NCBI GenBank assembly: GCA_002952755.1
Contig: CP025011.1
Location: forward strand, 750,001 to 782,000
DNA length: 32,000 bases
Source of the DNA: Candidatus Saccharimonadota bacterium
GTDB taxonomy: Bacteria > Patescibacteriota > Saccharimonadia > Saccharimonadales > UBA4665
Direction of reading: 5' to 3'
Part shown: one piece after another, positions 3,552 through 25,693 of the stretch
How positions within the stretch are numbered: position 1 is the stretch's first letter
Layout: the number at the start of each line of letters is the position of its first letter
Made by a program: the position numbers and the translations under genes
Notes under the pieces: model-generated
Databases searched by the model: none
The model's input: only the letters and a program-made list of their open reading frames with translations
What the model was told of the DNA's origin: nothing

Positions 3552-3752
3552 CCCAAGCTAAGAAGTAGTGTAAGCATGGGTAGTGCTATAGTCGTGATTC
3601 GCTTTCGACATAATATTGCGCCAAAAACGCCTAGCTTAGTTACCTTCGCGCGATAAAAACTTAACACACTAAGTATCAACTATCCTTGGCCCTAAAGTAC
3701 GTCAAGGTCTCTGCAAGTCGTGCTGGACTGCAGTGTAAGCACTAGGGGAATT

Positions 3753-6700: not shown

Positions 6701-7336
6701 TACTGGTGAAGCCTTTAGCGAGCGCGCGACCGTAGGAAGCATGTACATGATTAAGCTTAACCACATGGTGGCCGATAAGATTCACGCTCGCTCCACTGGT
6801 CCGTACACCATGGTTACCCAGCAGCCACTCGGCGGTAAGGCTCAGAATGGTGGTCAGCGCTTTGGAGAAATGGAAGTATGGGCACTTGAAGCCTACGGTG
6901 CCGCAACTACGCTGCAAGAAATGTTGACCATCAAATCCGACGACGTTTATGGACGCTCCAAGAGTTATGAATCGATCATCAAAAAGACACCAATTGTCGG
7001 TCCAAAAGTACCAGAAAGCTTTAATGTGCTCGTGAAAGAACTGCAAGGCCTCGGCCTCAAGGTTGACCTTGTAGCTTCCGACACCGTTGTTGATGCTGAA
7101 CAGGTCTTAGCGACTAATGTTCGTGATGAAGCCGAGCATATTTCCGATGTAGAGGTCCCTGCTCCCACTATCTCCGATGTAGATGTTACAGAGGAATCAG
7201 CCGTTGACGAATTTATGACTGTTGGCGACGTGACCGAAGACGGAAGCGTCGTGCCAACCGACTCAGACGACGATGACCTGGGGGATGACGATTTCGCCGT
7301 CACCGAAGAAGACACTAACGAAGAGGAGATTGCCTA

Positions 7337-7337
<1 letters not shown>
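3753..7337 (+). CDS. rpoB: DNA-directed RNA polymerase subunit beta
   Basis: Conserved beta blocks are present (GRHGNKGVIARI, NPLGVPARMNLGQIFETHLG, HARSTGPYTMVTQQPLGGKAQNGGQRFGEMEVWALEAYGA). I prefer ATG 3753, preceded by AGGGGAA, over the track start GTG 3720. There is an 84-aa acidic C-terminal tail. Confidence 0.95.
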
Positions 7338-11164
<3,827 letters not shown>

Positions 11165-11285
11165 TCCTGTTAGAATAGTACCTACATAGTAACATGCAGT
11201 CCGAGCCAGGGAAGTAAGGGTAGACAGAGTTGGCACTCGTTAACCCTCCCTGATTGCGCGTAGACCTGCAGAATAAGGAGCAATA

Positions 11286-11699
11286 ATGCCAACAATCAAT
11301 CAATTGATTCGCAAACCGCGGACCAAGGTGACTACCAAAAGCAAGTCACCAGCCATGCAGCGCGTGGTCAACAACCTCAAAACCAAGAACTACGAAAAGG
11401 CTTCACCGCTCAAACGCGGTGTCTGTGTCAAGGTAACTACCAAGACTCCTAAGAAGCCAAACTCAGCTCTCCGTAAAGTGGCGCGTGTTCGCCTCACCAA
11501 CGGCTACGAAGTCTGGGCATATATTGGCGGCGAAGGCCATAACCTGCAAGAGCATGCTGTCGTCCTGGTACGCGGTGGCCGTGTGAAAGATCTTCCGGGT
11601 GTACGCTACCACATCGTACGCGGTGCGCTTGACCTTCAAGGTGTCCAAAATCGCAAGAAGGGCCGTTCCAAGTACGGCGCAAAGAAGGAGTCTAAATAA
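11286..11699 (+). CDS. rpsL: 30S ribosomal protein S12
   Basis: 137 aa with [26 protein letters not shown] lies upstream. Confidence 0.97.
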
Positions 11700-12178
11700 T
11701 GCCTCGCCACAAGACTAAGGCTTTGGTTCGTGACGTTCAGCCAGATCGCCTTTATAACAGCGTCCAGATTGCCCGCTTGATCAACCGCGTCATGCGTGAC
11801 GGCAAGAAACAAGTTGCCGAACGCCTGGTATACACCGGCATGCAAAAGGCTGCCGACAAACTCAAAGTTGAGAATCCACTGGAAGTCTTCGACCAAGCTT
11901 TCAAGAATGTGCAGCCCCACATGGAAACTCGCTCCCGCCGGGTTGGTGGTGCTAACTACCAGATCCCATTCGAGGTAAAAGGCCAGCGTCAGAACCACCT
12001 CACCACGATGTGGTTCGTCGCCGCCGCCCGTTCCCGCAAGGGCATGAGCATGGCTGATCGTATCGCCCTTGAGCTCGTCGACGCATATAACAGCCAAGGT
12101 GCTGCCGTCAAGAAGAAGGAAGACACGCACAAGATGGCCGAAGCTAACCGTGCCTTCGCACACTTCGCCAGAGGGTAG
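11699..12178 (+). CDS. rpsG: 30S ribosomal protein S7
   Basis: 159 aa with an S7-like sequence (VGGANYQIPFEV). TAATG overlap with rpsL. Confidence 0.97.
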   Translation: MPRHKTKALVRDVQPDRLYNSVQIARLINRVMRDGKKQVAERLVYTGMQKAADKLKVENPLEVFDQAFKNVQPHMETRSRRVGGANYQIPFEVKGQRQNHLTTMWFVAAARSRKGMSMADRIALELVDAYNSQGAAVKKKEDTHKMAEANRAFAHFARG

Positions 12179-16231: not shown

Positions 16232-16561
16232 ATGGTAGCAGAAGTAAAAAAAGATCAAAAACAGCGTATTCGTATCCGCCTCAAGGCCTACGACCACAAA
16301 GTAATAGATCAAGCCGCAAAACAGATCGTTGATACTGCGCTGCGCACCGGCGCTACCATTGCTGGCCCTATTCCACTGCCTACCGACCGTAGCACTTTTA
16401 CGGTTATCAAGTCCCCCCACGTATTCAAGAAGGGGCGTGAGCAATTCGAGATGCGCGTACACAAGCGTTTGATTGACGTGACTGATCCAACGCCAAAGAC
16501 CATCGACTCACTCATGAACTTGAGCCTGCCCGCTGGTTGCGACGTCGAAATCAAGATGTAA
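16232..16561 (+). CDS. rpsJ: 30S ribosomal protein S10
   Basis: 109 aa with an S10-like sequence ([24 protein letters not shown]...[23 protein letters not shown]). Confidence 0.97.
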
Positions 16562-16575
16562 ATCTTCTGTCCTAT

Positions 16576-16613
16576 AAAAAATAAACCGCCTATAAAGAAG
16601 CGGTTTATTTTTT
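16576..16613. terminator. intrinsic (bidirectional-type) terminator directly after rpsJ
   Basis: AAAAAATAAACCGC - 10-nt loop - GCGGTTTATTTTTT. This is a perfect 14-bp stem with an A-tract on one side and a T-tract on the other. Confidence 0.75.
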
Positions 16614-16678
16614 ATATTAGGCCAACGCATTTAGTTGAACGATTAGAATCGTAGCGAGTGTAGTGATATCATCTAAGG

Positions 16679-17461
16679 ATGTCAGAATTCGATTCGAATG
16701 TCCCAGATGCGGCAAGAAGCGCTTTTCGCACAACCTTACACCGAGAGCGGGGTAAGCGAAGAGCGGCAGGATTTATGATAGGTTCGGTGGCGTTTGCCGG
16801 AGAAGGGGACGCACTCATATGCGTGGATGAATGTACTCCGAAAAATCCACCCCGCCTACGTTTTCCACGTTACATGGTAACCATAGGTGCCATAGGAGAC
16901 TTTGGAAAGGAAAACATTGAAGGGGCGGTCATCACCCATGTAACGCCTAATCATACGCTGGACGGCTGGAGCAAATACAGCCTACCCCTGCCATACGCTC
17001 TACCGTGGTCCAAGATAGCTCGAGCGCAAGGATTGTATAGAGAAGTTGCTTTATCGGCGAAGTATAAGTACGGCGAGATGGCGTCTCCTGCCTTACACGG
17101 CATAGCGTCAGAGTATTATAAGCTCTATGAGCGGGGCGGTCTGCTGTACGACCTAGGGGAGCAGCCTTATAGAGAAGAGTTGTGCGAAGGCATGTCGCCG
17201 CATATGGCATCCGCCTTAGGGCCAGCGCAAGACAACCTGGCGAGCACATTAGAAGAAGTTGCCGCCCAGCTGCGCAGATCACCGGAAGCCATACTAGACG
17301 CATGGCCACTTAGTGAGGGCCCGCTTTTTCGTAAGGGAAAGCCGAGCTATGACGGCGTAAGACTCGAGTGGACGACCGACTTTTCGGGAGCGACCTTGGC
17401 TGGCTTAGGGGTGCAGCCGATAGACCCTCAGCCGTGGTTCCGTCCTAATGCACGTTCATAA
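16679..17461 (+). CDS. hypothetical protein (260 aa), no recognisable domain
   Basis: Long ORF in the rpsJ|rplC island. AAGG sits immediately upstream of the ATG. I recognise no motif. Confidence 0.55.
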   Translation: MSEFDSNVPDAARSAFRTTLHRERGKRRAAGFMIGSVAFAGEGDALICVDECTPKNPPRLRFPRYMVTIGAIGDFGKENIEGAVITHVTPNHTLDGWSKYSLPLPYALPWSKIARAQGLYREVALSAKYKYGEMASPALHGIASEYYKLYERGGLLYDLGEQPYREELCEGMSPHMASALGPAQDNLASTLEEVAAQLRRSPEAILDAWPLSEGPLFRKGKPSYDGVRLEWTTDFSGATLAGLGVQPIDPQPWFRPNARS

Positions 17462-17535
17462 TGTGGAGCGATTTTAATTGTCTCGCTCGTATTCAACACT
17501 GCCCAGGAAGCGGATAACTAGATTGGAGATGATGT

Positions 17536-18087
17536 ATGATGAAGTCGCCAGAATTAATCGTGTTTGTTAACGAAGACGGAGTTCCCACCGGTGAGACCGG
17601 ACCAAAGCTCGAGAGTCATACCGCATACACAAGGCTACATCTCGCTTTTTCGTGTTACATTTTCAGGCGCAGCGATAAAAAATTCCTACTGACACAGCGG
17701 GCCCTTAGTAAGAAAGTCTGGCCTGGGGTTTGGACAAATAGTGTCTGCGGACACCCGCAGCCTGGCGAAGCCACCGTGGATGCAATTCGTCGACGCGCCG
17801 CTTTCGAGCTCGGCATGCACGATTTCCAGGACATTACGCCGATATTGCCGAAGTATCGCTACACAACTCCGGAATATAACGGCATTATTGAAAACGAATT
17901 CTGTCCTGTTTACCTAGCCTACACGAACGCAGAGCCAGAGCCGAATCCCGATGAGGTCGAAGCGTACCAATGGGTTAGCTGGCAAGATTACAAGCACCTT
18001 TTAGCATCTAAGCCAGACATTATGAGTTACTGGGCCAAGGATCAATATGTACAGCTCAAAGACCTTGCACCATTTGATACGCTCTAG
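17536..18087 (+). CDS. idi: isopentenyl-diphosphate delta-isomerase, type 1 (Nudix fold)
   Basis: 183 aa, collinear with E. coli Idi. Shared blocks: HTAYTRLHLAFS (His25/His32 equivalents), RALSKKVWPGVWTNSVCGHPQ (Cys67/His69), IENEFCPVY (Glu114/Glu116). SD GGAG lies upstream. Confidence 0.9.
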   Translation: MMKSPELIVFVNEDGVPTGETGPKLESHTAYTRLHLAFSCYIFRRSDKKFLLTQRALSKKVWPGVWTNSVCGHPQPGEATVDAIRRRAAFELGMHDFQDITPILPKYRYTTPEYNGIIENEFCPVYLAYTNAEPEPNPDEVEAYQWVSWQDYKHLLASKPDIMSYWAKDQYVQLKDLAPFDTL

Positions 18088-18111
18088 ACGCACTGCCGAA
18101 ATGTGCATTGC

Positions 18112-18140
18112 TTGTGGTGAGATAACACGCAAGGTATACT
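18112..18140 (+). promoter_or_regulatory. candidate promoter TTGTGG-17 nt-TATACT
   Basis: The -10 ends 8 nt before ATG 18149, which is leaderless geometry. Confidence 0.35.
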
Positions 18141-18148
18141 AAGCGCTA

Positions 18149-18427
18149 ATGACAAAAACAAAAAAGAAAAACAGCCCAAGGCGGCGAGAGCTGGATGGTG
18201 TTTTCTTATTAAAGTTGGTGTTGTATGTGCTGCTAGGGTCGATGTGGCTCAAAATCAGCCATGGAGACATGGTTCGCCTACCGATCCCCATCGGATTGGC
18301 CATGGGCTTGGTTTTTACGAGTCATGAACATTTCCAAATCGACCGTAAAATTGAATACGCCGTGCTGCTTATAGCTATGCTCATAGGCTATCTTGCCCCA
18401 TACGGCCTGTACATATATCTAAACTAG
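18149..18427 (+). CDS. small membrane protein (92 aa)
   Basis: K/R-rich N-terminus followed by hydrophobic helices (VFLLKLVLYVLLGSMWL, IPIGLAMGLVFT, YAVLLIAMLIGYLAPYGLYIYL). Confidence 0.55.
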   Translation: MTKTKKKNSPRRRELDGVFLLKLVLYVLLGSMWLKISHGDMVRLPIPIGLAMGLVFTSHEHFQIDRKIEYAVLLIAMLIGYLAPYGLYIYLN

Positions 18428-19018
18428 CTACATATCCGGCATTTCGTCTGAGATCATCTCCTGGACAGTTTTCTTAAACTCGGCTAGTACTGCCGAAGGG
18501 CGAAGTATTGACGGGTACCACAAGTGCACTATTGTTTCGCCGATTGGAGCTACTTTGCTTTCGACTACAGTACTAAATTGACAAACGGCTAGCGGCAGAG
18601 GGGGTCTTTCCCGTTTTGCGTCTGCGATGGCGAGACGGACTGGCTTTACTGGGGAAAGCATACGTTCGTACGCTTCCCAAGCATTTTTGGTCGCTGGTGA
18701 GACTCTGTCTAATGCTGCTCGACCAATACTTGCACCCAAGATCATCTTTCTCATCCTTGCCGCTTCTTGCGCAACGACCTCTGGATTATCTTCCTGCGTA
18801 ATAGTAATTGCAGTGTAGTATCTATCAAATTCAGGATCTGCTCCTGGCCAATAAAATGCCGCTGAGCAGTGGTCTAATTGAATATCTGGATCATAAGCGT
18901 CTGTTACCCCAGGCTCGCTGTTACTGAGCGCGATATTTGAGTAATCGGAGTCATGAGACAAGCCTTCTAATATATAAAGACTACGCTCGCTCTGGTAGGG
19001 ATATTCTGAATTGGCCAT
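18428..19018 (-). CDS. hypothetical protein (196 aa), the only minus-strand gene in the window
   Basis: I prefer ATG 19018 (MANSEYPYQ...) over the track TTG 19093. A perfect TATAAT on the minus strand at 19037-19032 lies 13 nt upstream. No recognisable domain. Confidence 0.5.
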   Translation of the reverse strand: MANSEYPYQSERSLYILEGLSHDSDYSNIALSNSEPGVTDAYDPDIQLDHCSAAFYWPGADPEFDRYYTAITITQEDNPEVVAQEAARMRKMILGASIGRAALDRVSPATKNAWEAYERMLSPVKPVRLAIADAKRERPPLPLAVCQFSTVVESKVAPIGETIVHLWYPSILRPSAVLAEFKKTVQEMISDEMPDM

Positions 19019-19086
19019 GAAAAACCTTATTATTATACGTTCGCAAAGAAAAATCACTCTAACGTCAGTGTAGAATTGTCTACACA

Positions 19087-19115
19087 TTGACAAGGGAAGA
19101 TATCTCTGTTACGAT
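19087..19115 (+). promoter_or_regulatory. rplC-operon promoter TTGACA-17 nt-TACGAT with extended -10 TG
   Basis: Consensus -35 at 19087-19092 and TGTTACGAT at 19107-19115. A ~150-nt leader precedes rplC. Confidence 0.55.
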
Positions 19116-19273
19116 GTATTGGTATATCAAATACCTGTACTTGGTGATTTGAGCAGGTCGCTCTTAACAGAGGCGAAACCACTCGGAGCCGAGCGTTTTT
19201 ATACTCGTGAAGTTATAAAAGGTGAGGCGGCAGGATAAGGATGCGGACTACCATGTGTCCGTATGGAGTCACT

Positions 19274-19894
19274 ATGAAAGCACTCATTACCCGAAAGGTA
19301 GGCATGACCAGCACCATCGCAGAAGATGGCGTTGTTACTGCTATTACCTTGCTTTCCGCTAGTCCCTGCGTTATTACGCAGGTCAAAACCGCAGATCCAG
19401 ACGGCTACACCGCCGTGCAGATCGGTTTTGAAGAAGCAAAAAAGCAAAACGTTAACAAGGCGCAAGCTGGTCATTTCGCGAAGGCCGGCGAGATTATGCC
19501 AAAAATTATTCGCGAGTTCCGCGTCGACGAAATCACTGAAGACCTCAAGGTTGGAGAAACGATCAACCCCGAGGTCTTTTCAATTGGTGACGAAATCGAC
19601 GTAACGGGCACCAGCAAAGGTAAAGGTTGGGCCGGCACTATTAAGCGTCACAACTTCCACCGCGGCCGCAAGACCCACGGTGGCCGGTCGTACCGCCGTC
19701 CTGGTTCTATTGGCTCTATGTACCCTCAGAAGATTTTCAAGGGTAAGAAGATGGCTGGCCACATGGGCGCTGAGCAAGTCACCGTCAAGAATTTGAAGGT
19801 TGCACTCGTCGATACTGAGCTGGGTGTCATCGGCGTTACCGGTGCAGTGCCTGGCCCACGCAACGGCATTGTCATCATTAAGGAGGCCAAGTAA
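19274..19894 (+). CDS. rplC: 50S ribosomal protein L3
   Basis: MKALITRKVGMTS matches the usual L3 N-terminus. GGAG lies 7 nt upstream. The track start at 19241 was rejected. Confidence 0.95.
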   Translation: MKALITRKVGMTSTIAEDGVVTAITLLSASPCVITQVKTADPDGYTAVQIGFEEAKKQNVNKAQAGHFAKAGEIMPKIIREFRVDEITEDLKVGETINPEVFSIGDEIDVTGTSKGKGWAGTIKRHNFHRGRKTHGGRSYRRPGSIGSMYPQKIFKGKKMAGHMGAEQVTVKNLKVALVDTELGVIGVTGAVPGPRNGIVIIKEAK

Positions 19895-19896
19895 TG
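19876..19896 (+). repeat. 21-bp direct repeat, left copy (rplC 3' end / SD / TAATG)
   Basis: CATTAAGGAGGCCAAGTAATG is identical to 19992-20012. Confidence 0.95.
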
Positions 19897-20010
19897 TTTG
19901 CCGCAGCTATAAGGGAAAAGAGCAGCCAGAGCAACCGAATTTACTTCGGTTCCCTGCGCGATGAGAAAAACCGTAGGTTTGTCTTATGTGCCATTAAGGA
20001 GGCCAAGTAA
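19894..20010 (+). repeat. junction insert element copy 1 (~116 bp) carrying a 38-codon mini-ORF
   Basis: ATG overlaps the rplC stop and TAA overlaps the rplD ATG. Peptide: MFAAAIREKSSQSNRIYFGSLRDEKNRRFVLCAIKEAK. Shares conserved blocks with 25005-25121. Internal hairpins at 19933-19951 and 19963-19985. Confidence 0.7.
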
Positions 20011-20012
20011 TG
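19992..20012 (+). repeat. 21-bp direct repeat, right copy
   Basis: CATTAAGGAGGCCAAGTAATG is identical to 19876-19896. Confidence 0.95.
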
Positions 20013-20660
20013 GCTGCTACAACTACCGTGCCGACCTTCACGAAGAGCGGTGCTAAAGCAACAACCGCTGCCAAGCTCGACGCCGGCGTCTTTGCGATTA
20101 TGCCAGAAAACCACGAGCTTCTGAAGCTCGCCTACACCGCATACCTCGCAAACGGCCGCGACAACTTGGCGCAAACCAAAACCCGCGGCCTGGTGAGTGG
20201 TGGCGGCAAGAAACCCTGGAAGCAAAAGGGCACTGGCCGCGCACGCTTCGGCTCTACCCGTAACCCTATTTGGCGTGGCGGCGGTGTCGCCTTTGGGCCC
20301 ACCGGCAACGAAAATTACTCCGTTAAGGTAAACGTCAACGCCAAGCGCCAAGCATTGCGCCAAGCGCTCAGTCTCTCGGCCAGCGAAAGCCGAGTGTGCG
20401 TTATCGAAACTTTCGAATGCAAAGAAGGTAAGATTTCCCAAACCGCCAAGCTGCTCGACAAGGTCGGCGCCAAAGGCAGCGTGCTCATCGTCGTAGATCA
20501 CAAAGATGATCTAGCCGTACGTGCTACCAACAACCTGCCTAAGGTAAAGGTAGTACAAGCCAATTACCTCAATGTGTATGATGTCTTAAATGCCGATACT
20601 GTCCTGATCAGCGAAAAGTCACTAGCCATCATTAGCGAGTGGCTCGGAGGTACTAAGTAA
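20010..20660 (+). CDS. rplD: 50S ribosomal protein L4
   Basis: 216 aa with KKPWKQKGTGRARFGSTRNPIWRGGGVAFGP. Confidence 0.97.
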   Translation: MAATTTVPTFTKSGAKATTAAKLDAGVFAIMPENHELLKLAYTAYLANGRDNLAQTKTRGLVSGGGKKPWKQKGTGRARFGSTRNPIWRGGGVAFGPTGNENYSVKVNVNAKRQALRQALSLSASESRVCVIETFECKEGKISQTAKLLDKVGAKGSVLIVVDHKDDLAVRATNNLPKVKVVQANYLNVYDVLNADTVLISEKSLAIISEWLGGTK

Positions 20661-21010
20661 TGGACAAGACTACTGTATTGAAGCCACGGCTGAGCGAAAA
20701 GACCTTTGGTCTTGCCCAATCGCGCACCGTATACGTCTTTGACGTGCCTACCGATGTTAACAAGCACACCGTTGCGGCAGCTGTTGCAACTCAATTTGAT
20801 GTCACGGTTATGGCCGTCAACATCGTGAACAGCAAGGGTAAGAAGACTCGTCTGGCTCGCAAGAACGGCCGCGCCATCACAGGACGACGTTCTGACACCA
20901 AGAAAGCCTACGTTACCCTTAAGGAAGGCCAAAAACTTCCATTCTTCGATGAGCCTGAAACCGACAAGAAAGCCGACAAAAAGGCTGCGAAGAAAGAGGA
21001 GAAGAAGTAA
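20660..21010 (+). CDS. rplW: 50S ribosomal protein L23 (with Lys-rich C-terminal tail)
   Basis: L23-like core (VLKPRLSEKT...YVFDV) plus the tail DEPETDKKADKKAAKKEEKK. TAATG overlaps on both sides. Confidence 0.93.
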   Translation: MDKTTVLKPRLSEKTFGLAQSRTVYVFDVPTDVNKHTVAAAVATQFDVTVMAVNIVNSKGKKTRLARKNGRAITGRRSDTKKAYVTLKEGQKLPFFDEPETDKKADKKAAKKEEKK

Positions 21011-21846
21011 TGGCTCTCAAACAATATAACCCCACGACCCCCGGTCGTCGTGGCATGACCAGCCAGGACACCAGCGAAATCACAACCAAGAAACCGCTGC
21101 GCTCCTTGCTCGTCCACAAGCGCGTCCAGAACGGCCGCAACAACCAAGGCCGCATTACCACCAGGCACAAGGGTGGCGGTGTCCGCCGCTTCTATCGTAT
21201 TATGAACTTTAACCTCGCTGAAGGCGTCACCGCCGTCATCGAGCACATCGAATACGACCCAAATCGCAGTGCCCGCATTGCTCGCATTAAAGAAAACAAC
21301 GGCACGTACCACTACATCCTCGCTGCCAAAGATATGAAGGTTGGCCAGACCATTACGAGCGGCGAAGAAGCACCTATCGAGAATGGTAATCGTTTGCCAA
21401 TCAAGAATATCCCTATCGGCAGTACCATCCACGCCATCGAGATGAAGCCTGGCCGCGGTGCCCAAATGGTACGCAGCGCCGGTAACGGTGCTCAGTTGAT
21501 GGCCAAAGAGGGCGACTACGCCCAAGTGCGTCTGCCGAGCGGCGAAGTTCGCTTGGTGCGCCTGGAATGCACCGCCAGTATTGGCGTTGTTGGCAACGAG
21601 CAGCACCAAAACATCAAGATCGGTAAGGCCGGCCGCAAGCGCCACATGGGCGTTCGTCCAACCGTTCGTGGTGTGGTTATGAATGCTGTTGACCACCCCC
21701 ACGGTGGTGGTGACGGTGGCCGTCACCGCATGGCAAAAGCGCCCCGTACGCCTTGGGGCCAAAAGACTCTGGGTTACAAAACGCGCCGCCGCAAGTCTAC
21801 ATCGCAGTTCATTGTTAAAAGCCGTCATGCGGCGAAGAGGAAGTAG
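21010..21846 (+). CDS. rplB: 50S ribosomal protein L2
   Basis: 278 aa with RGVVMNAVDHPHGGGDG. Confidence 0.97.
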   Translation: MALKQYNPTTPGRRGMTSQDTSEITTKKPLRSLLVHKRVQNGRNNQGRITTRHKGGGVRRFYRIMNFNLAEGVTAVIEHIEYDPNRSARIARIKENNGTYHYILAAKDMKVGQTITSGEEAPIENGNRLPIKNIPIGSTIHAIEMKPGRGAQMVRSAGNGAQLMAKEGDYAQVRLPSGEVRLVRLECTASIGVVGNEQHQNIKIGKAGRKRHMGVRPTVRGVVMNAVDHPHGGGDGGRHRMAKAPRTPWGQKTLGYKTRRRKSTSQFIVKSRHAAKRK

Positions 21847-21850
21847 CGAT

Positions 21851-22081
21851 ATGACGAATCCTACAGAATTACCCAATAAACACGTCGATAGGGAATTTGT
21901 AACCGGGCTCGTCGGACAGCAAGTGGCTGCTAACTTAGCAGAGCTTGCTCGTCCGCCCCACGACCCGGTGCAGGGTTTTCGAGATCGGGGTTTACCTGAA
22001 ATTGCGCCGAATGTTTTTTCCGGTTTTGGTGGTTTAGTAATAATAGATTTTAATACCAGGACAGCAGGAGAATCCCTATGA
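21851..22081 (+). CDS. small hypothetical protein (76 aa) inserted between rplB and rpsS
   Basis: ATG lies 4 nt after the rplB stop. Its TGA overlaps the rpsS ATG (ATGA at 22078-22081). Peptide: [77 protein letters not shown] recognise no family. Confidence 0.45.
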
Positions 22082-22353
22082 GTCGTTCGCTGAAGAAGGG
22101 ACCATTCATCGACCCCAAGCTTGCCAAAAAAGCAGCCGCATTGGGGCCAGATGATCGTACCATTATCAAAACGTGGGCTCGGGCCTGCACCATCGCACCG
22201 GAATTCGTTGGCCGCACCTTTGCAGTCCACAATGGCAAAGTCCACGTGCCGGTATTTGTTACCGAAAACATGGTCGGCCACAAGCTGGGTGAATTCGCCC
22301 CGACCCGCAAGTTCCGCTCGCACGGCGGTAAATTAGCAAAGGGTGGTAAGTAG
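22078..22353 (+). CDS. rpsS: 30S ribosomal protein S19
   Basis: 91 aa with [11 protein letters not shown]...FAVHNGK...[13 protein letters not shown]. Confidence 0.97.
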
Positions 22354-22354
22354 T

Positions 22355-22732
22355 ATGAGCGTACAAGCAATTGCCAAAGGCGTTCGTATGAGCCCGCGCA
22401 AGGTTGGCGTCGTTGCTAGCCTGGTCCGCGGCCGCACCGTTGCCGACGCTTTGACTATTCTGGAACACACGCCCCGCCGTACGGCACTGCCTGTTTCCAA
22501 GACGATTAAAAGCGCACAGGCCAATGCCGACCACAATCACAATCTCAAGCCAGATACGCTTCGAATTGTAGAAATCAGCGTCACTCCAGGGCCACGCCTG
22601 AAGCGCTATCGCCCAGCCGCCCACGGCCGTGCGCTGCCATTTATGCGCCGCACCAGCCACATTCGCGTAGTCGTTGATGGCGAGGCGCGCGTTGCCAAGA
22701 AACCAGTCAAGACCGAAGAGGAGAAGAAGTAA
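22355..22732 (+). CDS. rplV: 50S ribosomal protein L22
   Basis: MSVQAIAKGVRMSPRKV is a typical L22 N-terminus. I prefer ATG 22355 over GTG 22343. C-terminal tail KKPVKTEEEKK. Confidence 0.93.
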   Translation: MSVQAIAKGVRMSPRKVGVVASLVRGRTVADALTILEHTPRRTALPVSKTIKSAQANADHNHNLKPDTLRIVEISVTPGPRLKRYRPAAHGRALPFMRRTSHIRVVVDGEARVAKKPVKTEEEKK

Positions 22733-23361
22733 TGGGCCAGAAAGTTAACCCTATTAGCATGCGCCTCCAAGTCAATAAGAACTGGCGCAGCAAATGGTTT
22801 GTCAATAAGCGTGAATATGCCTCTTATTTGGCGCAAGATCTCGCTGTTCGCCGCATGATCAAGAATAAGTTGGGCTCCCGGGCCGCCATTAACAAAGTAG
22901 ATATTGAGCGTTCGCCAAATCTCGTCACCGTCACCATTACTACGGCAAAGGCAGGTGTCGTGATCGGTCGTGGCGGTTCTGGCGCAACTGAGCTAAAGCA
23001 AACTATTGAAAAGATCTACGGCGTTCCCGCTCGCGTGAACATCGAAGAGATCAAGAAGCCGGAACTCTTTGCTAAATTAGTCGCCGAGAATATTGCCCAC
23101 CAAATCGAACGCCGCATGAGCTTCCGCCGTGCCATTAAAGCGGGCGCTGCCAATACCATGCGTGCCGGTGCCAAGGGCATTCGTATCGAAGTATCCGGCC
23201 GGTTAAACGGTGCCGAGATGAGCCGCCGCGAGAAGGAAGTGCAGGGCTCTGTGCCACTTCACACTATTCGTGCTGATATCGACTACGCGCAAGTAGACGC
23301 CCGATTCCCAGGTTCCGGCATCATCGGCGTTAAGGTGTGGATTTACAAGGGAGAAGCATAA
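22732..23361 (+). CDS. rpsC: 30S ribosomal protein S3
   Basis: 209 aa with [12 protein letters not shown] and a KH domain GVVIGRGG. Confidence 0.97.
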
Positions 23362-23362
23362 T

Positions 23363-23779
23363 ATGTTAGTCCCAAATCGCACCAAATTCCGTAAGGTTCG
23401 CAAAGGTCGCATCAAGGGCCCTGCCACCTCTGGTAATTATATTGCCTACGGCGAATTCGCGCTTCAGGCCCAAGGCCACGAGCGTGTTACCAGTCGACAG
23501 ATCGAATCTGCCCGTCAAGCCATGACCCGCTACATCAAGCGTGGCGGCAAAATCTGGATTCGCATCTTCCCACATACCCCTGTCACCAAAAAGCCATTGG
23601 ATGTAAAGATGGGCTCTGGTAAGGGTAGCCCAGAATACTTCGCTGCTAAGGTTCGCCCCGGTACAATTCTGTTTGAAATGCAGGGCGTGAGCGAAGAAAT
23701 TGCTCGCGAAGCAATGCGTCTCGCCGCTCACAAGTTGCCGGTCAAGACCAAATTTGTGGCCAAGGAGGAACAGGCATGA
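23363..23779 (+). CDS. rplP: 50S ribosomal protein L16
   Basis: 138 aa with [16 protein letters not shown]. Confidence 0.97.
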
Positions 23780-23976
23780 AAGTAGCTGATATCCGTAAAT
23801 TGTCGACAAGCGAATTGGCTACTCAAAGTACCAAGCTTCGCGAAGAAATTGTCGAGTTAAAGCGCCGTTTGAGTATGGGTGAAGTCCAAAACGTCCGCGT
23901 AATCCGCGGCAAGCGTAAAGACCTCGCCCGTATGCTGACTGTATTAAGCGAACAATTATCAAAGGAGACTAAGTAA
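23776..23976 (+). CDS. rpmC: 50S ribosomal protein L29
   Basis: 66 aa, L29-like ([19 protein letters not shown]). ATGA overlap with rplP. Confidence 0.93.
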
Positions 23977-24284
23977 TGGCAAAAACTATTACCGGCATCG
24001 TCTCTTCGAAGAAGACCGACAAAACCATTGTCGTGACTGAGCACGAGCGCATGACTCATCCGCTGTATCGCAAGCAGTACACGGTGACCAAAAAGTTCAT
24101 GGCTCACGATGAGAAGAACGAGGCCCAAGAAGGCGACCGTGTGATGATTGGCGAAACTCGTCCACTCAGCACTCGCAAGCACCACACTCTCATCCGCGTA
24201 CTAGAGAAGGCAGGCGTAAAGCATGTTGAACCTGAAGTCGCTAAACCTGCGAAGGCAGACAAGGAAGTAGGGGAGACGGCGTAA
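23976..24284 (+). CDS. rpsQ: 30S ribosomal protein S17
   Basis: 102 aa. [14 protein letters not shown]...[16 protein letters not shown], plus a C-terminal extension. Confidence 0.95.
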
Positions 24285-24652
24285 TGATTCAGCAAGAAAC
24301 GCGCCTGAACGTCTGCGACAACTCGGGTGCCAAAGAAATCTTGTGCATTCGCGTTCTGGGCGGCACTCGTCGCCGCTACGCCCGCGTTGGCGACGTGATT
24401 GTGGCGACCGTTAAGGAAGCAAGCGCACAAGGTAATGTGAAGAAGAAATCGGTGGTACGTGCTGTTGTGGTTCGCACCAGCGAAAAAATTCGCCGCAAGG
24501 ATGGCTCAACCATCAAGTTTGATGACAATGCTGCCGTTATTATCGGCGAAGACAAAATGCCTAAGGCTACCCGCATCTTCGGGCCTGTACCGCGCGAGCT
24601 GCGTGACCTCGGCTACTCCAAGATCATTAGCCTTGCGCCGGAGGTACTATAG
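24284..24652 (+). CDS. rplN: 50S ribosomal protein L14
   Basis: 122 aa with [18 protein letters not shown]. Confidence 0.97.
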
Positions 24653-24654
24653 GT

Positions 24655-25005
24655 ATGAGCACTAAGAATAAAATCGAAGACAAGATTTATAAAATCCGTC
24701 TCAATAAAGGCGATACCGTCGTAGTGACCGCCGGCAAATATAAAGGCAAAACCGGCACTATTACCGCTACTCATCCACGCGAGAACAAGGTGACTGTCGA
24801 AGGTATTAACATCGTCAAAAAGGCCGTGAAGCCCACACGGACTAACCCCCAAGGCGGTATTATCGAAATCACCAAGCCGATGTGGGTAAGCAAGGTAGCG
24901 ATTGTAGAGCCGACGAGCAAGAAGCCAAGCCGTATCGGCTATTCGATTGCTGCAGATGGCACGAAGACGCGCGTCTTTAAGAAAACCGGAAAGGCGATTA
25001 AATGA
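24655..25005 (+). CDS. rplX: 50S ribosomal protein L24
   Basis: 116 aa with a KOW motif (KGDTVVVTAGKYKGKTG). Confidence 0.95.
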   Translation: MSTKNKIEDKIYKIRLNKGDTVVVTAGKYKGKTGTITATHPRENKVTVEGINIVKKAVKPTRTNPQGGIIEITKPMWVSKVAIVEPTSKKPSRIGYSIAADGTKTRVFKKTGKAIK

Positions 25006-25121
25006 TGATTACGATGCTGAGGGAAAAAGAGCAGCGCCGGTTCGCCGTAGGCGAATGCAGCTTAGCTGCAAGGCGCAATGAGAAAAAACCGCTAGGTTTT
25101 GTCTCATGGGAGGTTAAGTAA
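25005..25121 (+). repeat. junction insert element copy 2 (~116 bp) carrying a 38-codon mini-ORF
   Basis: ATG (25005, or in-frame ATG 25002) overlaps the rplX TGA and TAA overlaps the rplE ATG. Peptide: MITMLREKEQRRFAVGECSLAARRNEKKPLGFVSWEVK. Shares conserved blocks with copy 1. Hairpins at 25041-25055, 25057-25069 and 25080-25105. Confidence 0.7.
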
Positions 25122-25693
25122 TGGCTACTGCAACAATCAAACCAACGGTGCGCCTGCGCGACCAGTACAACAAGGTTATCGCCGGCGAACTCAAAAAGGA
25201 GCTGGAGATTGCTAATCCGCACGAGGTTCCCCGTCTATTGAAGATCACCATTAACGTTGGACTTGGCAAGGCTAAGGACGACAAAAAGATGCTTGAAGCG
25301 GCTACAAACACACTGCGCAAGATTACTGGACAGCAGCCTGTTGAGACCATTGCCAAGAAGTCTATCGCCGCCTTTAAGTTGCGCGAAGGCAACAAAATCG
25401 GCCTCAAAGTCACCCTCCGCGGCGACAAGATGTACGAATTTTTGGATCGTTTGATCACTCTCGTGCTGCCGCGCTTACGCGACTTCCACGGCGTCAGCGC
25501 CAAAGCCTTCGACCGCCAGGGCAATTTCAGCCTCGGTCTCATCGACCAGTCAGTCTTCCCAGAACTAACCTTCGAAGAGACAACGACCGCACATGGTCTA
25601 CAGGCTGTCTTCACCATTAACAGCAAGAGTCCGGCACACTCACGACGACTTCTCGAGAGTTTCGGTATGCCGTTCGAAAAGGAGAGCAAGTAA
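25121..25693 (+). CDS. rplE: 50S ribosomal protein L5
   Basis: 190 aa with an L5-like sequence ([12 protein letters not shown]...[10 protein letters not shown]-like [17 protein letters not shown]). Confidence 0.97.

Follow-up and report, generated by a model that had tools for sequence, protein, structure and literature searches.

What holds apart two genes of a ribosomal-protein operon whose neighbours are almost all in contact? Throughout the 32-kb stretch of Saccharimonadales DNA (candidate phyla radiation) analysed here, hereafter the window, nearly all ribosomal-protein genes are joined by a stop/start overlap of the type GGAG-N5-TAATG. Between the genes for L24 (rplX) and L5 (rplE), 116 bases are inserted, which we call copy 2; copy 1 is the insert between rplC and rplD. 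An earlier note on this DNA had paired the two inserts and had offered three non-exclusive readings, namely a miniature mobile element specialised for coupled junctions, a family of small basic peptides, and a structured cis-acting RNA. In our judgement copy 2 is probably an insertion of a small, non-autonomous, hairpin-forming dispersed repeat of the Saccharimonadales, rendered non-polar at gene junctions by a relay open reading frame (ORF) whose peptide is a by-product. The repeat family is apparently new to description: a search of the whole window against Rfam at the gathering score gave no hits, a search at E<=10 of window positions 19850-25200 and of positions 7050-11850 of the related locus L008, a stretch with four copies, gave no hit overlapping any copy, and no description was found in the literature on repeats in Saccharibacteria and the candidate phyla radiation or on small ribosomal RNA (rRNA) insertions. 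Viral contigs scanned with the family pattern gave no matches.

A discrete structured unit and its empty sites

Family copies were sought by BLAST, by an nhmmer profile and by a covariance model. Two blocks are common to both window copies, as the earlier note had reported (19912-19926 versus 25020-25035, and 19956-19988 versus 25073-25108). The third block on which it relied, GGAGG-NN-AAGTAATGGCT, does not mark the insert, for a repeat search places this motif at five or more junctions of the operon, and here it belongs to the duplicated target junction. A generic third block is what would be expected if the likeness of the two copies stemmed merely from chance or from the Shine-Dalgarno (SD) and stop/start signals common to coupled junctions. 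The probability of that explanation is nevertheless close to nil, as blocks 1 and 2 lie outside the junction motif, and as it is refuted by the covariance model, by the metagenome copies and by an independent profile built, without the two window rows, on 92 copies from other contigs. Run against the window, this profile found copy 1 (E=4.7e-22) and copy 2 (E=4.5e-10) and no third place, the next value being E>1, while the covariance model scored 89.2 and 45.7 bits for the two copies and at most 12 bits for the rest of the window. The cross-genome search that the earlier note had proposed has borne out the similarity, with more than 130 further copies of the same architecture and with empty sites in relatives. 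The metagenome scan used a 22-base degenerate pattern taken from the second hairpin of the element, and yielded at least 119 contigs, at least 141 profile hits and at least 102 distinct cores. For structure, 94 distinct cores were aligned; the genomic context was tallied for 132 distinct copies, a lower bound on the size of the family.

From its 5' end on, the core has an invariant purine block (AGGGAAAAGAGCAGCC), a GC-rich hairpin with covariation (P2), the bases GCGCG and a second hairpin (P3, AUGAGA...UCUCAU). In the core alignment the information content is zero immediately outside the AGGG... and ...GUCUCAU ends, so that the core stands out as a discrete unit 74-77 nt long. The purine block is nearly invariant even though it was absent from the search pattern; the pattern lay in P3, which explains in part the near-invariance of that hairpin in the alignment. 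In about a quarter of the copies, above all those in rRNA, a pyrimidine-rich flank upstream pairs with the purine block to form an extra helix.

The helices are maintained by compensatory change. Among the 94 cores, 95.7% of the cells can form standard pairs, as against 85.6% in shuffles and 34-53% with slid partners, and cells with a double change number 199 as against 59.6 in shuffles. Individual P2 pairs occur as three or four pair types (for example C-G 51, A-U 21, G-C 20). P3 is closed by A-U in 89 copies and by U-A in five, and this pair is broken in none; at one further P3 pair, 77 copies have G-C and 17 have G.U, a combination compatible with the sense strand only. The window copies themselves illustrate this pattern: P3 reads GAGAAAAACC-GUA-GGUUUGUCUU in copy 1 and GAGAAAAAACC-GCUA-GGUUUUGUCUC in copy 2, where an extra A on the 5' arm is compensated by an extra U on the 3' arm, and a G.U pair of copy 1 is G-C in copy 2. 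Such single-base indels between the window copies shift the reading frame and keep the helix. In a diverged subfamily P3 is wholly different yet still paired (AUGAGAGGGGA-AGC-UCCCUUCUCAU and CUGAGCGGGGG-UGU-CCCCCGCUCGAG). Copy 2 represents another subfamily, whose P2 has given way to two hairpins enclosed by a common helix. In copy 2 these hairpins span 25040-25056 and 25057-25069 and the enclosing helix is GCGCC/GGCGC; they are the two GC-rich hairpins that the earlier note had seen at its centre. A branched centre of this kind also occurs in L078 (15550-15638, upstream of secY), L174 and L096, L-numbers being labels of related loci and contigs. By minimum-free-energy prediction copy 2 folds at -43 kcal/mol (z=-3.5).

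Empty sites were sought in the 80 closest loci, picked by their rpsC protein, all of them Saccharibacteria assemblies bar a few with odd labels; 19 ribosomal-protein genes were mapped across these loci and the junctions scored for inserts. The gap between rplX and rplE is at most 5 nt in 63 of 71 related loci and that between rplC and rplD in 62 of 68, and in 53 of the 80 genomes the 17 junctions counted in the S10-spc cluster (rplB|rpsS excluded) are free of inserts of 60 nt or longer, whatever their family. In the closest relative, L005 (rpsC 90% identical), both junctions are uninterrupted (...ATTAAGGAGGCGAAGTAATGGCTGCT... and ...GGAAAGGAGATTAAGTAATGGCTACT...), empty and filled sites align base for base with those of the window, and no family copy was found in the locus. 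Copies of the family occur in nine of the 80 genomes, on the coding strand throughout (17/17 hits sense), and at any one site some related genomes have a copy while others lack it. The junctions occupied are rplC|rplD, rplD|rplW, rplW|rplB, rplV|rpsC, rpsC|rplP, rpmC|rpsQ, rpsQ|rplN, rplX|rplE and rplE|rpsN, to which the secY leader is added; L009 and L010 have copies at other junctions that share about 94-95% identity with the core of copy 1.

Insertion has also left a footprint. Copy 1 is flanked by a perfect 21-nt duplication, CATTAAGGAGGCCAAGTAATG, that is present once in L005. At copy 2 the duplication has decayed, and its left flank (AAGGCGATTAAATGATG) and right flank (TGGGAGGTTAAGTAATG) each match the L005 junction AAGGAGATTAAGTAATG at 14 of 17 positions. 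In the family at large, 20 of 98 copies have flanking direct repeats with a score above the 99th percentile set by controls with mismatched flanks (1% of controls); the duplications are variable in length (10-43 nt) and are separated from the core by 2-25 non-conserved bases. As read from these flanks, the mini-ORF owes its start codon, in the clear cases, to duplication of the downstream gene's start, and its SD and stop to duplication of the upstream gene's end. The proposal that the insert brings its own SD, start and stop therefore does not hold for the clear cases, although a subgroup of copies has a recurring tail, AAGCCGGAGGCG, which may carry an SD of its own.

Proposed translation across the junction copies

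The upstream and downstream overlaps of copy 2 are as the earlier note had placed them. The rplX stop, TGA at 25003-25005, is overlapped by in-frame ATGs at 25002 and 25005, and the mini-ORF ends on a TAA (25119-25121) whose final A is common to the rplE ATG at 25121; the peptide, MMITMLREKEQRRFAVGECSLAARRNEKKPLGFVSWEVK, carries nine basic and five acidic residues when counted from the second Met, which agrees with the earlier count. Such a bridging ORF, defined as one that starts within -4 to +6 nt of the upstream stop and ends within -4 to +12 nt of the downstream start, is found in all 12 family copies that lie at junctions. The gaps in which these copies lie measure 100, 103, 109, 112, 115 (four copies), 118, 120, 121 and 145 nt, and 11 of the 12 are 1 mod 3 (P=4.7e-5), the length expected if the relay ORF stays open only where the period is 2 mod 3, with the TAATG junction duplicated on both sides. 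The rule extends to inserts of 60-170 nt irrespective of family, since a bridging ORF is present in 58 of 76 as against 11.6% after interior shuffling, and the gap is 1 mod 3 in 53 of 78 (P=4.5e-10). The length of exactly 38 codons to which the earlier note drew attention follows, in both window copies, from their 116-nt period, (116-2)/3; it is not a property of the family, in which mini-ORFs overlapping both flanking genes have 33-41 codons and two looser ones have 30 and 39.

A simple relay would account for the non-polarity of these insertions. A ribosome that ends rplX would re-initiate at the overlapping ATGA/ATG, translate 38-39 codons and thereby melt P2 and P3, stop at TAATG and re-initiate on rplE. 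The SD of this last step, GGGAGG at 25108-25113, is unpaired in the predicted fold of copy 2. Survival would then be limited to insertions that have the right orientation, frame and length, the peptide would be a by-product, and the hairpins and purine block would be recognition features for the mobilising machinery, with a possible secondary effect of the hairpins on the stability of the mRNA. Orientation may be constrained for a further reason. A terminator scan picked up the minus strand of copy 2, where a GC hairpin is followed by CUCUUUUUCC, and the lack of antisense copies inside operons may reflect the terminator-like hairpin and CUCUUUUUCC that an antisense insert would place in the mRNA.

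The relay is not the only outcome of insertion beside a coding sequence. At L008 11700-11775 the S17 gene runs on in frame from its 3' end into the element, which lengthens the C-terminus by about 40 residues and leaves no separate mini-ORF, and L070 4702-4771 is probably a fusion of the same kind. Apart from an open 5' region before secA, these S17 extensions are the only in-frame candidates seen.

Distribution and rival explanations

Gene junctions are the minor habitat of the element. The S10-spc cluster holds about one in ten of the metagenome hits among the matches listed, and most copies are situated in the leaders of transfer RNA (tRNA) genes, in or next to rRNA genes and in 5' untranslated regions (UTRs), so that the element is a genome-wide repeat and not the specialist of coupled junctions that the earlier note had envisaged. 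Twenty of the 132 copies lie 2-11 nt upstream of a tRNA gene, all of them in the sense orientation, and no sense copy among the 132 lies downstream of one; a further five are directly upstream of 5S rRNA. At least 17 are inside or abut 23S rRNA in the sense orientation, at about six places supported by Rfam large-subunit (LSU) rRNA matches, with three antisense; some of them abut the 5' end of the 23S gene, and the places, by E. coli coordinates, apparently include the helix-25 and helix-45 regions. At one 23S site the element is present in six of nine contigs and absent in three. Stable-RNA operons as a whole have 42 sense and three antisense copies. Where an SD and start codon follow the element, the spacing is 11-31 nt (56 nt in one case), and 16 of the 23 proteins encoded downstream, named by reading their N-terminal sequences and not by profile hits, are ribosomal, including S17, L4, L2 (four copies), L23 (two), S3, L11, L13, S13 (two), S10 and L7/L12; the others include SSB, ATP synthase beta and gamma, RNase III and Jag, which takes the element beyond ribosomal-protein operons to atp, ssb and rnc genes. 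There is a strong bias towards highly expressed, translation-related transcription units.

Some observations concern individual rRNA loci. Rare antisense copies occur at L124 8969-9047 and L096 1987-2088, one inside a 23S gene and one in a 23S-5S spacer, and in the L124 copy a base of P3 has changed to UCGAG/CUCGA with pairing kept. The 23S genes on element-bearing contigs exceed the model in length by up to about 900 nt (3845 versus 2925 nt in L096), and L104 has a group I intron (1796-2054; Rfam RF00028, 63 bits) inside a 23S gene that also bears a copy of the element.

The possibility that the inserts encode a family of small basic peptides (REKSSQS...LRDEKNRRFVS), produced along with the ribosomal proteins, draws on the prediction of the ORF by gene callers and on the fact that 22 of 27 junction mini-ORFs (24 copies, three with a second ORF in another frame) use the same frame and have common motifs. 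These motifs, however, are just the conserved nucleotide blocks read in one frame. The same nucleotides are conserved, and most copies lie, where translation is impossible, inside 23S genes or in tRNA leaders; the window copies differ by three 1-nt indels in block 2 and by a single one in block 1; junction copies do not all read P3 in one frame but use two; and the residues encoded by P2 vary freely as the stem covaries. Frame 0 is open in 69 of 103 cores overall and closed in about 45% of the non-junction copies, and the called ORF has no precomputed Pfam hits. On these comparisons the idea that amino-acid sequence explains the conservation is not supported, and a peptide gene is very improbable.

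A more serious contender is that the host uses the element as a cis-acting RNA module common to rRNA, tRNA-precursor and ribosomal-protein transcripts, where a single factor would bind or cut it and so co-ordinate processing, stability or expression, mobility being the way in which the module is recruited to new genes. The tight and one-sided placement before tRNAs, the copies directly before 5S or abutting the 23S 5' end and the predominance of ribosomal proteins downstream are all in keeping with such a role, as are the near-invariance of the purine block, the compensatory changes that keep the hairpins, the P3 pair whose G.U form fits the sense strand only, and the divergence of merely 8% in the conserved blocks set against 60% at host third codon positions. 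The element is structured, and enriched in translation-apparatus transcripts, which is compatible with the earlier reading as a cis-acting RNA; the note's author was correct that it is no classical leader regulated by a single ribosomal protein. A host function that is required is argued against by the patchy and non-orthologous distribution: most relatives (53 of 80) do without such inserts at the S10-spc junctions, the L005 locus has no copy, occupied sites vary among genomes, the window and L020 have copies of different subfamilies at the same rplX|rplE junction, copies occupy six or more different places in or at the 23S gene, a few copies are antisense, and no Rfam family matches. We regard the host-used module as unlikely, if far from negligible. 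A related and likewise unlikely proposal is that the element is more than selfish, being a shared module in front of or within translation-apparatus transcripts (tRNAs, 5S, 23S and ribosomal-protein cistrons in at least five operons), whose purine block would be read by one factor, be it a nuclease, a chaperone or a regulator, that co-ordinates the output of ribosome components, in spirit like the 5'TOP motif of eukaryotic ribosomal-protein mRNAs. In a variant the element would spread through an RNA intermediate, which would explain the bias to abundant sense transcripts, the long and variable target duplications and the extra junction nucleotides. Jointly, use by the host as an RNA module and spread through an RNA intermediate hold a small but real share of the probability.

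The preferred interpretation, that of a dispersed mobile repeat which is tolerated at junctions because ribosomes can be relayed across it, keeps from the earlier mobile-element proposal what the empty sites in most relatives, the many junctions occupied, the target duplications and the invariable bridging ORF support. It has weaknesses of its own. Terminal inverted repeats are absent (by inspection, 6 of 12 positions agree between the 5' end AGGGAAAAGAGC and the 3' end in reverse complement, ATGAGACAAACC), as is a target duplication of fixed length. Neither a mobilising enzyme nor an autonomous parent, in which the 5' and 3' blocks would enclose an ORF, was found in about 2 Mb of searched sequence, and no RAYT (Y1 HUH) gene turned up in the flanks of the copies, which had no systematic search. 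Moreover, stable-RNA genes contain or adjoin about a third of the copies, and ribosomal proteins make up most of the downstream products identified, which amounts to an enrichment beyond random insertion followed by selection, and the spacing to mature tRNA 5' ends (2-11 nt) is strikingly tight. The low divergence between copies at the same junction, relative to host third codon positions, requires that the element is still active or being transferred, or that resident copies are under selection; the copies inside L008 are not near-identical, and there is thus no sign of a very recent burst.

Known repeats, coordinates and neighbouring inserts

Among described systems the closest in behaviour are the MIRUs (mycobacterial interspersed repetitive units), short and apparently mobile repeats that insert at start codons in operons and whose internal ORF is translationally coupled, with little harm (PMC12548453). 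The window copies at rplC|rplD and rplX|rplE behave alike in lying between co-oriented operon genes, and at every family junction copy an ORF bridges the upstream stop and the downstream start. The likeness is one of behaviour; the host phylum is another, and a relation in sequence is not expected. MIRUs are direct repeats, often in tandem arrays, whereas all copies of the element are single, no tandem family having appeared in the repeat, profile or model searches; the element is, in addition, a multi-hairpin structure with covariation, and most of its copies lie away from junctions, in rRNA genes, tRNA leaders and 5' UTRs.

In Rickettsia felis, 728 RPEs (Rickettsia palindromic elements) have been counted, 85 of them in ORFs and three in RNA genes (PMC1166351). 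Like the element, with its at least 132 dispersed hairpin copies in the ~100 nt class, some of them inside LSU rRNA matches, RPEs are small palindromic repeats of a reduced genome that invade coding, non-coding and RNA genes without destroying them. RPEs are typically in frame inside proteins, whereas for the element only C-terminal fusions have been seen, and in protein-coding operons it usually has a separate bridging mini-ORF. The intervening sequences of 23S genes are similar extra stem-loops of about 100 nt, sporadic at variable helices, as the element is at about six sites, but the element is found in mRNAs and tRNA leaders as well. With REP/BIME, ERIC and Correia-type repeats and MITEs it has in common that it is dispersed, co-transcribed and hairpin-forming, with many copies and no coding capacity of its own; it differs from all of these in being strongly sense-biased and biased to translation-apparatus genes, from MITEs in having neither terminal inverted repeats nor a fixed short target duplication, and from REP/BIME, imperfect palindromes of 20-40 nt that commonly lie outside genes at their 3' ends, in its 75-nt core with three different helices, its single copies in place of inverted pairs and its position mostly on the 5' side of genes. 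Mitochondrial double-hairpin elements and GC clusters inhabit compact genomes, where they lie between genes, in the variable regions of rRNA and now and then within coding sequence. Compared by description only, they resemble the element in being two-hairpin mobile units and differ in being organellar. The element does not fit the definition of either MITEs or REP/BIME, and unlike MIRUs it does not form tandem arrays; it acts in the manner of MIRUs and RPEs without being a member of either. Its place is among the small dispersed structured repeats, newly seen in Saccharibacteria.

An apparently undescribed repeat family is thereby added to a phylum thought to be streamlined and repeat-poor, and one that invades its most conserved and most highly expressed genes, namely 23S rRNA, tRNA leaders and ribosomal-protein operons. 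It offers a natural example of a non-polar insertion between coupled genes, where duplication of the junction would furnish a relay mini-ORF and selection on length is visible in the gaps of 1 mod 3, a rule that several unrelated insert families in the clade also obey. There are practical consequences too: the mini-ORFs get annotated as hypothetical proteins, and the inserts lengthen 23S genes and ribosomal-protein operons that serve as phylogenetic markers and can break assemblies. A mobilisation route that deserves a search is suggested by the bias in targets and by target duplications that are long and variable.

Table 1. Parts of the two window copies, by position in the window
Feature	Position	Strand	Remarks
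Bridging mini-ORF, copy 2	25002..25121	+	39 codons from ATG 25002, 38 from ATG 25005; also a gene-caller ORF on near-identical contigs
Conserved core, copy 2 (branched-P2 subfamily)	25020..25107	+	Covariance model 45.7 bits, E=2.9e-10; independent profile E=4.5e-10
5' purine block AGGGAAAAAGAGCAGC, copy 2	25020..25035	+	Nearly invariant family-wide; mostly unpaired or paired with upstream pyrimidine flank
P2, copy 2	25034..25076	+	Closing helix 25034-25038/25072-25076 around hairpins 25040-25056 and 25057-25069
P3 hairpin, copy 2	25078..25107	+	AUGAGA-A-AAAACC / GGUUUU-G-UCUCAU; conserved A.G mismatch
Right-hand duplicated junction, copy 2	25108..25123	+	SD GGGAGG 25108-25113, TAA 25119-25121, rplE ATG 25121-25123
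Left-hand decayed junction, copy 2	24991..25007	+	AAGGCGATTAAATGATG; rplX end and mini-ORF start codon; 14/17 versus L005
Bridging mini-ORF, copy 1	19894..20010	+	38 codons, between rplC and rplD
Conserved core, copy 1 (standard form)	19912..19987	+	P2 19927-19956, P3 19961-19987; covariance model 89.2 bits
Left copy of 21-nt target duplication CATTAAGGAGGCCAAGTAATG	19876..19896	+	Single copy at empty L005 site
Right copy of 21-nt target duplication	19992..20012	+	21/21 identical to left copy

Several functional readings of parts of the element were tried and set aside. A hammerhead-like reading of GCGAUGAG fails on inspection, the core having no U4 and no GAAA after the helix, and Rfam gives no hit; a boxA-like UGCUCUUUU is antisense, which in nearly all copies is the wrong strand. 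The purine block is, on inspection against anti-SD sequences, not complementary to the 3' tail of 16S rRNA, and a promoter within the element would, from TTGTCT, have its -10 box inside the tRNA, while the upstream flanks are not conserved. As to variation in the copies, the rplC|rplD copy of L078 (7360-7470) has an extra 39-nt hairpin nested in the loop of P3, with a partial repeat GATAG(A/T)A...CCG around it, which may be a nested insertion or an internal duplication; and in L112, L202 and L132 a hairpin followed by the motif GGAAGCCTCACACTTCC is located 30-60 nt downstream of the core.

Other inserts share the junctions of the S10-spc cluster. Unrelated families occur in L049, L083, L013, L055, L058, L059, L028 and L072 as imperfect palindromes of 90-160 nt built of 7-8-nt periodic units (for example GATTACAGAATTCAGATTATAG...), in L049 and L083 at almost every ribosomal-protein junction, and a bridging mini-ORF is present in 46 of 64 such inserts. 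A third small family is represented in L009 by near-identical 61-nt inserts (TGCAAGGCCAA...GCATGCCACTGGCATGC...) at rplC|rplD (7131-7191) and rplW|rplB (8279-8339). The spacer between rplB and rpsS in the window (21847-22077, 231 nt) holds a 76-codon ORF (~21850-22080) that ends on the rpsS start; it was considered as a tandem pair of elements and rejected, having no similarity to the element. In 16 related genomes this spacer is likewise long (79-352 nt), each with a bridging ORF of 25-117 codons, and their sequences are unlike one another, so that rplB|rpsS looks like a hot spot for variable small ORFs.

The setting of the window was established in part from translated sequence. The genes from rplC to rplO were named from their translated termini, and those from rpsS (S19) through rplO were confirmed by Pfam hits on near-identical contigs. 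By size, order and reading, the large ORFs from window position 3720 are probably rpoB, rpoC, fusA and tuf; in the stretch from rpoB to rpsJ, confirmation by tblastn is confined to rpsJ (16253-16558). Some 2.7 kb with four ORFs (16679-17461, 17536-18087 and 18149-18427 on the plus strand, 18428-19093 on the minus strand) separate rpsJ from rplC (region 16253-19240), and the S10 operon is therefore split in the window. Among the relatives, the contigs L010, L071 and L006 are labelled Nevskiaceae, Burkholderiaceae and Parcubacteria; they are probably mis-binned or mislabelled, since their rpsC is 84-89% identical to that of this Saccharibacteria window.

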